DNA from: a virus
Length of the DNA stretch: 64,000 bases
IMG/VR virus record: IMGVR_UViG_3300007511_000003
Location: 64,001-128,000 of that record
Direction: 5' to 3' (one strand)
The position numbers and the translations under genes were made by a program. Of this stretch, positions 52,386 to 55,300 are shown in pieces (the first letter of the stretch is position 1; each line of letters begins with the position of its first letter). The notes beneath the pieces were generated by a model. The model was not told the DNA's origin. It saw only the letters and a program-made list of their open reading frames with translations, and did no database searches.

Positions 52386-52414
52386 ATTGTAACATATACC
52401 AACAGAAGAGTCAA
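52386..52414 (-). promoter_or_regulatory. sigma70-type promoter
   Basis: TTGACT-17 nt-TACAAT with extended -10 TG. Confidence 0.75.
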
Positions 52415-52454: not shown

Positions 52455-52595
52455 CTTGCCATAGAAGAGCCCAGATGGAGGCAGGCAACGTTGGGCATGG
52501 ACGTTAGGCGGCACTCGGAGACCGGGGAGATCACACTATACACCTGGGCCCTTCTATGGCAAGGCAGGCCCACCTACTTGGGACCCTGCCCTCAT
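52455..52595 (-). ncRNA. candidate structured RNA with 20-bp closing stem
   Basis: Inverted repeat 52455-52474 / 52544-52563 plus upstream hairpin, just downstream of TGTAAATA at 52600. Confidence 0.5.
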
Positions 52596-52634
52596 GGTTT
52601 ATTTACAAGAAATTATTATAAACTGAGCCAAAAA

Positions 52635-52722
52635 TGGAGCCAGGAACAGGATTCGAACCTGCGTTGGGTTTTCGCCGTCGGCTTACAAAGCCGCTCCTCT
52701 CGGCCGCTGGAGGGACCCTGGC
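52635..52722 (-). tRNA. tRNA-Thr(TGT) with long variable region
   Basis: GCCAGGG/TCCTGGC-T-CCA; loop TT-TGT-AA; GGTTCGAATCC; 15-nt variable region. Confidence 0.75.
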
Positions 52723-52745
52723 AAATCAAGATTAGACTAGAGATA

Positions 52746-52819
52746 TGGACCTGCGTTTGGGTAGAACCAACAACCTAAGGCTTAACAGGCCCTCACTTTA
52801 CCAACCAAACTACTGTGGA
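52746..52819 (-). pseudogene. degenerate tRNA-Asn(GTT)
   Basis: AGGGC-CTGTTAA-GCCTT arm and 3' CCA, but acceptor and T arms poorly paired. Confidence 0.5.
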
Positions 52820-52825
52820 TTAAGA

Positions 52826-52933
52826 TGGCACGTAGTAGGAATCGAACCTACGATTCTCGCTTAAACGGTTGATCAGTCCGCTATCGGCGAGCACAGACTC
52901 TGCCTGCGCGTTTACCACTCCGCCATACGTGCC
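52826..52933 (-). ncRNA. tRNA-like RNA with aberrant anticodon/variable region
   Basis: Perfect acceptor and T arm, class-II-like D arm, no canonical anticodon loop. Confidence 0.7.
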
Positions 52934-52939
52934 ACAAAG

Positions 52940-53200
52940 AAAATATGGTGTGCTATTACGCCAAAGAGGAGTTCACCCTTACCATCTCTGGGGTGGCTTA
53001 CTACTTCACCAAGTGGCGCCCGTCGCCTATCCCTCATAGCAGGTGGTCCTGCAGAGCTCTTTATTTGGATGCCGCCACCCAAACGTTAGCCTAGAGGTTT
53101 CCCTGGTTCATGCCCTTGCAATCCAGGTACGTACTACAACTAACGGCCTTTGCCTCACTCTTTAAAGGATGGCTGCTTCTAAGCCAACCTCCCATACCTT
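52940..53200 (-). ncRNA. 23S rRNA H43/H44 (uL11-binding) mimic with ~195-nt insert
   Basis: GGAGGUUGGCUUAGAAGCAGCCAUCCUUUAAAGAGU...GCGUAAUAGCACAC closed by AAGGUAUGG/CCAUAUUUU. Confidence 0.8.
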
Positions 53201-53209
53201 ATAGTATAT

Positions 53210-53581
53210 TCAATACCACGTTCGATGTTGTTCAAATACCCATTCACGACCATCGTCAGCTTCACCGATACTCCACTTAATGTCCTCCGGAATCTCTATG
53301 ACCTTCAGGTCAGGGGCCAAATCCTGGTGTTGGTTGAATGCTTCCAAGAGAGCAGGGTCATCACGCGGTATATCAAACACTGGGCAAAATCGTTCACCAT
53401 CCTTGGTGTAGTTAAAGGATGCATGTGGTTCGTCTTCATGGGCCTGGTCTTTATAAGATTGGACATACACTCCGTCCAGTTCCCACTGGAGATCAACACC
53501 AGTAGCCTGTGCCCAGGCCATCACAATTTTGTGTGGAAGGGAAAACCCACCGATTTCTTTGTTAATGAGTATATGCCTCAC
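53210..53581 (-). CDS. conserved small phage protein
   Basis: INKEIGGFSL...RDDPAL...LKVIEIP...DDGREWV.E.HRTW. Confidence 0.75.
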   Translation of the reverse strand: MRHILINKEIGGFSLPHKIVMAWAQATGVDLQWELDGVYVQSYKDQAHEDEPHASFNYTKDGERFCPVFDIPRDDPALLEAFNQHQDLAPDLKVIEIPEDIKWSIGEADDGREWVFEQHRTWY

Positions 53582-53608
53582 GAGTAACTACCTTAAGTAC
53601 TGGTTGAT

Positions 53609-53685
53609 TGGCTGGCCCTCCTGGATTCGAACCAGGGATACACAGAATCAAAATCTGTTGCCTTACCAAACTTGGCTAAGGGCCA
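53609..53685 (-). tRNA. tRNA-Gln(TTG)
   Basis: Canonical cloverleaf, encoded CCA. Confidence 0.93.
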
Positions 53686-53690
53686 ATCGA

Positions 53691-53857
53691 ATACCACAGG
53701 CTGGGCGTTACTCCAGCTACACGGTTTCTCACCAGGAATATAACCGGGATCACCTGGTAATTCGCACGAGCTACACTGGCATCAGGCCCTTATCCCTTGC
53801 CATTTGGGCAATATCCCTCCTGTCACCAGGAGGCCCCCGTTTACCGCGGGGCGGTAC
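53691..53857 (-). ncRNA. candidate multibranch structured RNA
   Basis: GUACCGC/GUGGUAU closing stem enclosing five hairpins. Confidence 0.55.
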
Positions 53858-53864
53858 AACGCAA

Positions 53865-54113
53865 TTATGCCACTCCTCTATATATTATTATTATATAGAG
53901 ATGTGTCCTGTTTCCCCGCCCGATCAGGTGACGGGCCTGACGCTCGGTGCCGACACGCCAGTCTTGTTCTTGAGCGAGTTTGGCAAAGGCAAGGGCCAAT
54001 AGGTTGCGATCATAATAGGCGGCCTCCAATGCTTGCCCCTCCGCTCGCAACTTAACCACTTCTGCCTTTCGCAGTTCCTCAGCATGAGCGCCTGATAATT
54101 GGACATTACACAT
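53865..54113 (-). CDS. hypothetical protein
   Basis: AYYDRNLLA motif. Confidence 0.45.
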   Translation of the reverse strand: MCNVQLSGAHAEELRKAEVVKLRAEGQALEAAYYDRNLLALAFAKLAQEQDWRVGTERQARHLIGRGNRTHLYIIIIYRGVA

Positions 54114-54122
54114 GGTCAGTTC

Positions 54123-54311
54123 CTAATCAACAATAGTAAAATCAAAGGCCCCATAATCCAAGATCACGCTTTTACCTGGAGGAACATGTGTCAGAACAAA
54201 CTGTTCAAAGGTAGGGTCGTTTCCTTTTAAACGGAGAAACCGTTCATCCTTTGGCATTCCTTCCCACTGCTCCTTAACCATCTTTTCCAGTTCGTCATAG
54301 GTTAACTTCAT
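54123..54311 (-). CDS. hypothetical protein
   Basis: 62-aa ORF. Confidence 0.55.
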   Translation of the reverse strand: MKLTYDELEKMVKEQWEGMPKDERFLRLKGNDPTFEQFVLTHVPPGKSVILDYGAFDFTIVD

Positions 54312-54487
54312 GATAGTGACCCTAAGTTACCACCCCAAGTATTTTTGATCACATGGCCACGCCACATGTGAAGACCCTCCTCCGTGGCGTGGCACCTTTT
54401 GCAAATACAGGCCCCTGCATAAAACCTATATATCTCGTTGTCTTCCTTGGGCTGGTGGCAACAAACACAATTCAGAGTTTCTTCCAT
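54308..54487 (-). CDS. 59-aa Zn-finger protein
   Basis: Not in track; MEETLNCVCC...CICKRCH; ATGA overlap with next ORF. Confidence 0.55.
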   Translation of the reverse strand: MEETLNCVCCHQPKEDNEIYRFYAGACICKRCHATEEGLHMWRGHVIKNTWGGNLGSLS

Positions 54488-54506
54488 GGAACCATGCCTT
54501 TAAGTT

Positions 54507-54582
54507 TGGTGGAGACGGACGGAATCGAACCGCCGACATCCTGCTTGCAAAGCAGGCGCTCTCCCAACTGAGCTACGCCCCC
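54507..54582 (-). tRNA. tRNA-Ala(TGC)
   Basis: Canonical, G3:U70, CCA. Confidence 0.96.
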
Positions 54583-54593
54583 ACGAGATAAAA

Positions 54594-55133
54594 TTACTTC
54601 TTTTGGAAAACCAACATCAAAGCCCCAAGGATCGATGCAAGACCAGCAAAAAGTTGACCGGGCAAAGGGTTAGTGTTGTTCGGAGTCTGCGCCAGCTGGA
54701 CCGCCGCCACCCGAAGCTGGTTCAGAAACATTGGGTTGGTCAAATCCATGGCCCCGCTTTGCTGAGGAATCTGGGCAGGAGCAGAGGGACCACCCCCAAC
54801 CACAGGAAACACCTGCTTCTCCTCAGGGTTCACAGCAACCTTCTGATCAACCAGGAACCCCTGTCCCGCTGTCAGGTGCTGCTTGAGCTGGTCAATGGTC
54901 CACAACATTCCTGCGTGGTCGGGTGGGGCCGGAGGGGGGCGGCGGAGGTTACGTGGTTTGAACCCTTGTTCCAAGGCAGACATGTACAGGACCTCAACAC
55001 CATTCTGGCGGGTGTACAGGCTGACGTTGAACACTGTGTTATCCGCTACTCCATAGATACGTACCTGTTGGCCTGGGGTAAATTTACGAAGCTGCTCCAA
55101 ATCAGCTGGTTTGTGGACTTCGATTACACTCAT
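54594..55133 (-). CDS. hypothetical protein with C-terminal hydrophobic anchor
   Basis: AAGGAG RBS. Confidence 0.6.
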   Translation of the reverse strand: MSVIEVHKPADLEQLRKFTPGQQVRIYGVADNTVFNVSLYTRQNGVEVLYMSALEQGFKPRNLRRPPPAPPDHAGMLWTIDQLKQHLTAGQGFLVDQKVAVNPEEKQVFPVVGGGPSAPAQIPQQSGAMDLTNPMFLNQLRVAAVQLAQTPNNTNPLPGQLFAGLASILGALMLVFQKK

Positions 55134-55212
55134 CTCGGCTCCTTTGTTCTACTGTTCCCACTGAACATGATCTAACCTCTGATAACCCAAAACCACCTCG
55201 GCTCTCAATAAT

Positions 55213-55300
55213 TGGTAGGGCTGGAGGGAGTTGAACCCACGGTAGGTCGCCCTACGTCGGTTTTCAAGACCGGTACCTTTAACCACTCGGCCACCCTTCC
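55213..55300 (-). pseudogene. chimeric tRNA-Ser(TGA) with non-pairing acceptor
   Basis: Ser-type D, anticodon and V arms; 5' GGAAGGG vs 3' CAGCCCT-A-CCA. Confidence 0.7.

Follow-up and report, generated by a model that had tools for sequence, protein, structure and literature searches.

A stand-alone phage RNA family copying the L11-binding domain of 23S rRNA, and its place in a putatively mosaic RNA island

We describe a family of free-standing viral RNA genes that copy the L11-binding domain of 23S rRNA (GAC mimics), one member of which lies in an island of non-canonical RNAs in a virus genome. With a probability of about 0.5, we read this island as a T5-style mosaic of RNA genes that were gained separately, not as one co-evolved cassette, and its mimic as an off-ribosome decoy for uL11 or the factor site. 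The window, that is, the whole stretch of 64,000 nucleotides that was analysed, is the middle portion of a 168.9-kb virus record (about 65% complete), which is present in marine metagenomes of one study and encodes near the island a protein 25-33% identical to its counterparts in Vibrio phages GR7B/GR11A and Ralstonia phage phiRSL1. All eight elements of the original prediction were found on the minus strand in the order claimed. The very short spacers that it had noted are present in four cases (about 5-12 nt, around the RNAs), but three other spacers are longer (23, 27 and 39 nt). The features of the island are as follows.

53690-53857, minus: multibranch RNA candidate; fold z -1.67; 3' hairpin (53718-53699) common to four other viral non-coding elements
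53609-53685, minus: tRNA-Gln(UUG), canonical, CCA encoded; 63 bits
53210-53581, minus: small ORF of 123 aa (possibly 103 aa), viral hypothetical protein, PHROG 16527
53157-53200, minus: 5' part of the GAC mimic; closing helix strand, H43 with the A1067 loop and 1082-1086 U-turn, to U1090 (53157)
52962-53156, minus: mimic insert of 195 nt between U1090 and G1091; G-C closing helix, terminal UUUR linker
52940-52961, minus: 3' part of the GAC mimic; H44 with the A1095 loop and closing helix strand
52826-52933, minus: anticodon-less tRNA-Leu-frame RNA; 43.7 bits, z -2.86
52746-52820, minus: decayed tRNA-Asn(GUU); 24.7 bits, under the cut-off
52635-52722, minus: tRNA-Thr(UGU) of 88 nt, long variable arm, CCA encoded
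52600-52607, minus: TGTAAATA promoter-like motif, enriched genome-wide in the window phage
52455-52593, minus: long-stem RNA candidate; 26-nt arms, z -4.12
52386-52414, minus: sigma70-type promoter preceding an HNH-like gene downstream

The whole record gives six tRNA-like matches, all within 52635-55297. The cluster reaches past the island, with tRNA-Ala(UGC) at 54507-54582 and tRNA-Ser(UGA) at 55216-55297 (both minus; the acceptor stem of the latter is poorly aligned). An AT-rich palindrome at 53871-53905, immediately upstream of the multibranch RNA, may be a promoter or a binding site.

The 23S rRNA mimic and its family

The mimic (53200-52940) corresponds to 23S positions ~1047-1112 (H43-H44) and is split by the insert, whose boundaries are U1090 (53157) and G1091 (52961). 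Its 5' half is identical to real 23S sequences at 33-36 of 37 nt, and the claim that this RNA mimics rRNA is backed by the sequence match, the fold and the deep conservation of the family. An assembly chimera was excluded, because the contigs are interrupted solely within the rRNA-identical stretch, the flanking depth is similar (41 vs 38; 48 vs 47), and the closing helix of the mimic pairs over the contig break. Neither the window mimic nor the family runs on into 23S sequence on both sides, whereas the control does. This control, the Paenibacillus phage Pd_22F record (MZ092003.1, ~83-85 kb), contains ordinary 23S rRNA, probably as host contamination. A hairpin module in the window insert (52997-52976) is present in 21 of the 101 members listed. 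The sarcin-ricin loop is absent from the window mimic, and the likeness of its insert to that loop is at shuffle level.

The family was collected by scanning viral contigs for patterns of each half of the mimic and by BLAST of cultured phages. At least 101 distinct members were obtained, nearly all from phages or from tRNA arrays of phage type, and the cultured carriers include Pseudomonas, Aeromonas, Xanthomonas, Cronobacter and Serratia phages, in which the mimic is unannotated. At least 14 additional matches differ by small indels or by carrying two inserts, the second at 1077/1078. The main insert is located at 1090/1091 in all members listed, with a length of 29-369 nt; it starts with G, closes on C and has UUUR at its 3' end, where the final base is A in 13 of the 101 members listed. 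When 185,579 species genomes were searched with the pattern, 20 matches were obtained, of which six have the split form and the remainder are mostly ordinary rRNA; the six sit in metagenome bins, five of them with tRNA genes close by. No family in Rfam 15 matches the mimic, and no description of the family was found in the searchable literature. Two loci (L148 and L169) each have two differing copies, and in phage XacN1 (L046:831-1481) the mimic sits between an annotated 2'-5' RNA ligase gene, which directly precedes it, and a terminator-like hairpin.

When all column pairs of the family were ranked by mutual information, uncorrected for phylogeny, the ten top pairs were expected helix and junction pairs. 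On this uncorrected scale, the 1058-1080 pair reaches 1.55 bits and the tertiary 1082-1086 pair, found in three forms (U-A, C-G and A-U), reaches 1.20 bits; in rRNA the latter is the trans pair that closes the junction U-turn (PMC2952862). The 1072/1092/1099 triple shows a concerted change to U/U/A in two members, and U1060 and A1088, a tertiary contact, are invariant across the family and hence uninformative for covariation. Base conservation was counted solely in members recovered via the opposite half of the mimic. By this count, G1063, G1071, C1079, A1084, A1085 and G1087-U1090 do not vary and A1095 is retained in 25 of 26 members, while A1067 and G1068 are retained in 44 and 39, respectively, of the 64 members recovered by the 3' half. 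Below 1054, the helix of the mimic is plain and covaries freely, and the H42 kink-turn (uL10 site) was looked for there and is not present in the family; uL10 binding requires this kink-turn (PMC10931766). About five members with long inserts (L097, L104, L122, L127 and L139; 301-322 nt) have copies of the sarcin-ricin loop, closed by differing stems, and thus contain both halves of the factor-binding site. Pairing of the 3' CUUU of the insert with 1084-1087 as a switch was rejected, because 1086 varies (A, G or U) and its supposed partner is constant.

Compared with the GAC of 23S rRNA (H42-H44, E. coli 1051-1108; the uL11/thiostrepton site), the mimic shares the H43/H44 sequence, the three-way junction, the 1082-1086 trans pair, the 1072/1092/1099 triple and the A1095 loop. 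It differs in being a free-standing gene with a helical insert and UUUR at 1090/1091, in the U1090-A1101 pair, in a relaxed A1067 loop and in a plain closing helix that replaces the H42 kink-turn. The leaders of r-protein mRNAs (rplJ for uL10/L12 and rplK for uL1) are likewise non-ribosomal RNAs that copy an r-protein site, but they are small motifs placed in cis on host mRNA, whereas the mimic is a viral stand-alone RNA with the whole domain. No such mRNA leader for uL11 is given in a review of the subject (PMC10931766).

Neighbouring elements and the make-up of the island

The RNA that follows the mimic (52933-52826) has an intact D arm, T arm and acceptor stem together with a stub hairpin and a 40-nt extra arm, and its CCA is not in register. 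A 3-nt loop replaces the 7-nt anticodon loop, so that it is not a decoding tRNA-Leu. The corresponding Leu-frame class comprises 93 distinct RNAs that keep a Leu-type D arm, T arm and acceptor stem but have no conserved middle. In the tRNA-Asn, the anticodon arm is intact (52793-52777), the acceptor stem is unpaired, and the model is matched at positions 8-63 only; since a likeness exists between its 3' end and the V/T junction in the tRNA-Thr gene 92 nt away, the sequence suggests local recombination. The tRNA-Thr(UGU) has in sequence the cloverleaf, CCA, and G35-U36 and G1-C72/C2-G71, which are identity elements of tRNA-Thr. Its long-armed design was seen in three other lineages among the examined loci (L002/L119/L136, L139 and L007), and a Tyr-derived body was unsupported by a crude comparison of D arms. 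An altered body with a normal anticodon is also a feature of the T5 tRNA-Lys that acts against PARIS, for which resistance is reported for Lys only (PMC11464382).

The remaining elements are less well placed. The multibranch RNA shows only modest folding, and its 3' hairpin fits a 20-nt pattern in four other viral contigs, a match count that could alone be chance. The four elements with this pattern are all non-coding and closed by stems abutting the motif, and three of them have a second common hairpin; the window RNA is without the latter and would be at most a diverged member. These elements (L323:7665-7830, L335:925-1105, L336:3715-3870 and L340:11160-11325) have no Rfam match, and two of the loci (L335 and L336) have expanded tRNA-like RNAs too. 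For the multibranch RNA itself, Rfam also gave no match, a likeness to 23S H89 was no better than shuffles, and a likeness to T5 RNA2H, the top of 42 comparisons, is probably chance, as the common letters fold differently and the upstream part is unalignable. The long-stem RNA is a single-copy element with a 5' hairpin and a 23-bp stem containing two G-U pairs, and no homologue was found. It is too short for a decayed mimic and misses the invariant 3' motif. Bacterial Y RNA (YrlA) and retron msr-msd RNA resemble it in having a long terminal stem, or show a tRNA-like elbow, but the long-stem RNA has no T loop, and neither a Ro60 nor a reverse transcriptase gene was found in the 65%-complete record. 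The small ORF has homologues widespread in viruses (113 proteins at E<=0.001, the window's own included), one of them syntenic in the closest relative; other mimic loci are without it. Pfam, PDB and Atlas gave no function or known fold for its product, and peptide-pattern searches with single neighbour genes gave no matches. One homologue (L366:4001-4333) has a giant-virus-like setting, amid ankyrin, BTB and small-GTPase genes.

It had been proposed that the island is a single precursor cut by tRNA punctuation into co-evolved tRNA and rRNA decoys that act jointly. A conserved cassette of this kind was not supported by a check of co-occurrence and synteny, in which the elements mostly neither co-occurred nor held their order in relatives, and we regard the proposal as a whole as improbable. 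In L174, the closest relative (proteins 33-60% identical, gene order the same), the mimic has a longer perfect closing stem and stands behind its own sigma70-type promoter, in a place that matches the window promoter at 52386-52414, and the locus gave neither tRNAs nor tRNA-like, multibranch or long-stem RNAs. Eighteen further syntenic loci are without the island, save one copy of L174, and more remote relatives have neither the small-ORF homologue nor the mimic. Of 82 mimics in the family, 39 are without a same-strand tRNA inside 500 nt; the other 43 have one, of varying kind. The mimics of XacN1, GAP32 and BF stand alone. A Leu-frame RNA was matched in only 4 of 99 mimic-bearing records, once adjacent (whole records were searched, many of them fragments), and the mimic in none of 49 other records, namely 45 Leu-frame carriers including T5 and four carriers of the hairpin. 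Moreover, the 5' end of the window mimic adjoins an ORF rather than a tRNA. The motif TGTAAATA has 25 copies where about 5 are expected, 19 of them outside long ORFs against a background of 28%, and on these counts it behaves as a promoter motif of the window phage; since one copy lies just ahead of the long-stem RNA, a single precursor is not needed and at least two starts are favoured.

Some observations do favour the proposal. The elements share one strand, four of the spacers are short, and an unrelated 221-kb phage (G012:C1:139787-140055, loci L020/L368), which gives no match to the marker protein of the window phage, carries the mimic, a tRNA-Leu and, 175 nt after the mimic, a Leu-frame RNA of the same subtype with the stub hairpin of the window, with a tmRNA beyond. 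This pair hints at a coupling of the two RNAs, and two more phages have both inside ~4 kb. As to processing, the spacers of 5-8 nt would allow the multibranch RNA and the mimic to have their 3' ends released by RNase P, through cuts at the tRNA-shaped RNAs downstream of each. Conservation of single elements also stands in part: the mimic, the Leu-frame RNA, the long-armed tRNA-Thr and the multibranch 3' hairpin recur in other phages, but the long-stem RNA is an orphan. The slot that holds the mimic in L174 is occupied in L178 (5040-5295) by a hairpin and another, different long-stem RNA, together with a perfect sigma70 promoter. Among the gene products of L174 (3548-5781) are QueC, an RNA polymerase alpha-CTD protein and a topoisomerase subunit that an intein splits.

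The mosaic reading has a known parallel in the phage T5 cluster (AY543070; RNAI, III, IV, RNA1, RNA2, RNA2H and RNA3), where non-canonical stable RNAs likewise lie amid tRNAs and small ORFs; rnaC and rnaD of T4 are further RNAs of this kind. T5 RNA1, a tRNA-like stable RNA by annotation, has a Leu-type D arm, a T arm and a replaced middle, as does the window RNA at 52933-52826. In contrast to the island, T5 has no GAC mimic, and none of its RNAs is clearly homologous to the long-stem or the multibranch RNA. In one T5-like phage (L347), an internal deletion removed most of RNA2H.

Proposed role of the mimic and alternative readings

For the decoy, we propose that the mimic RNA is produced in infection and that its 3' end in the window would be freed by RNase P at the tRNA-like RNA 6 nt downstream. 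The RNA would fold away from the ribosome and then bind host uL11, a step that we consider probable. It would thereby titrate uL11, or the factors that read the site, and blunt the sensing of stalled ribosomes. Because ribosomes without uL11 fail to activate RelA (PMC4974054), blunting of the stringent response may be the most direct consequence, which we put forward tentatively, as somewhat short of an even chance. The relaxed A1067 loop and the invariant core fit uL11 binding better than full factor docking. The tRNA-shaped neighbours probably have related roles in translation conflict and would have been acquired one by one. Against the decoy, eight members (L077, L115, L129, L146, L149, L161, L167 and L170) have a second insert at 1077/1078, near the uL11 face, and uL11 bound to ribosomes may exchange too slowly for titration to count. 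In addition, the UUUR linker and the insert are unaccounted for by uL11 binding, and another partner may therefore exist. A more specific version, in which uL11 or a sensor of stalled ribosomes is drawn away from the ribosome by the mimic, which in some phages would be paired with an anticodon-less tRNA-shaped RNA, the two recreating the L11 stalk and tRNA elbow read by RelA, seems to us a long shot.

Other roles can be given to the mimic within the same mosaic. It could act as bait for toxins or defence enzymes that attack ribosomes and read the factor-binding site (nucleases, glycosylases, modifying enzymes or thiopeptides), although no defence enzyme directed at H43-H44 is known to us. The sarcin-ricin-loop copies within one subfamily and the nearly constant A1095 are in line with a bait, as is the way in which phage tRNA variants beat tRNA-cutting defences (T5 tRNA-Lys vs PARIS, PMC11464382), but the A1067 loop is variable where the uL11-facing core is constant, and the window copy has no sarcin-ricin loop; we rate a bait as rather unlikely. 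Alternatively, the mimic could be a scaffold with a positive role, to which uL11 and translation GTPases are recruited and whose insert is cargo, so as to favour phage translation or the rescue of damaged ribosomes. The conserved insert modules (as the one in 21 members listed), the invariant linker and the members in which GAC and sarcin-ricin loop together recreate a factor-docking surface would suit such a scaffold. However, the insert can be reduced to a 29-nt hairpin, positions below 1054 are freely variable and no conserved H42 kink-turn is present for uL10/L12, which makes a scaffold a poor bet. An intron, excised to leave an intact 58-nt L11 domain, would explain the fixed position, the U that precedes the insert and the terminal G, as in group I introns. 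We find this very hard to accept, as the inserts range from 29 to 369 nt without a common catalytic core, end in A in some members and pair their own ends as a closing helix, and as neither an Rfam intron match nor, among the DNA contigs examined, a joined form was found.

In conclusion, no described counterpart of the mimic was found, while the island as a whole is an arrangement already seen in T5 and is less important than the mimic within it. Although rRNA mimicry is known from cis leaders of host mRNAs, we found no description of a stand-alone RNA of viral origin in which an entire domain of the ribosome is copied. The mimic can be tested in the cultured phages Astolliot, UNO-G1W1, 4_4572, XacN1, GAP32 and BF, and it offers a first handle on the role of the stable non-tRNA RNAs in phage tRNA clusters. 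If it binds uL11, it would represent a new phage route onto translation and stress sensing.
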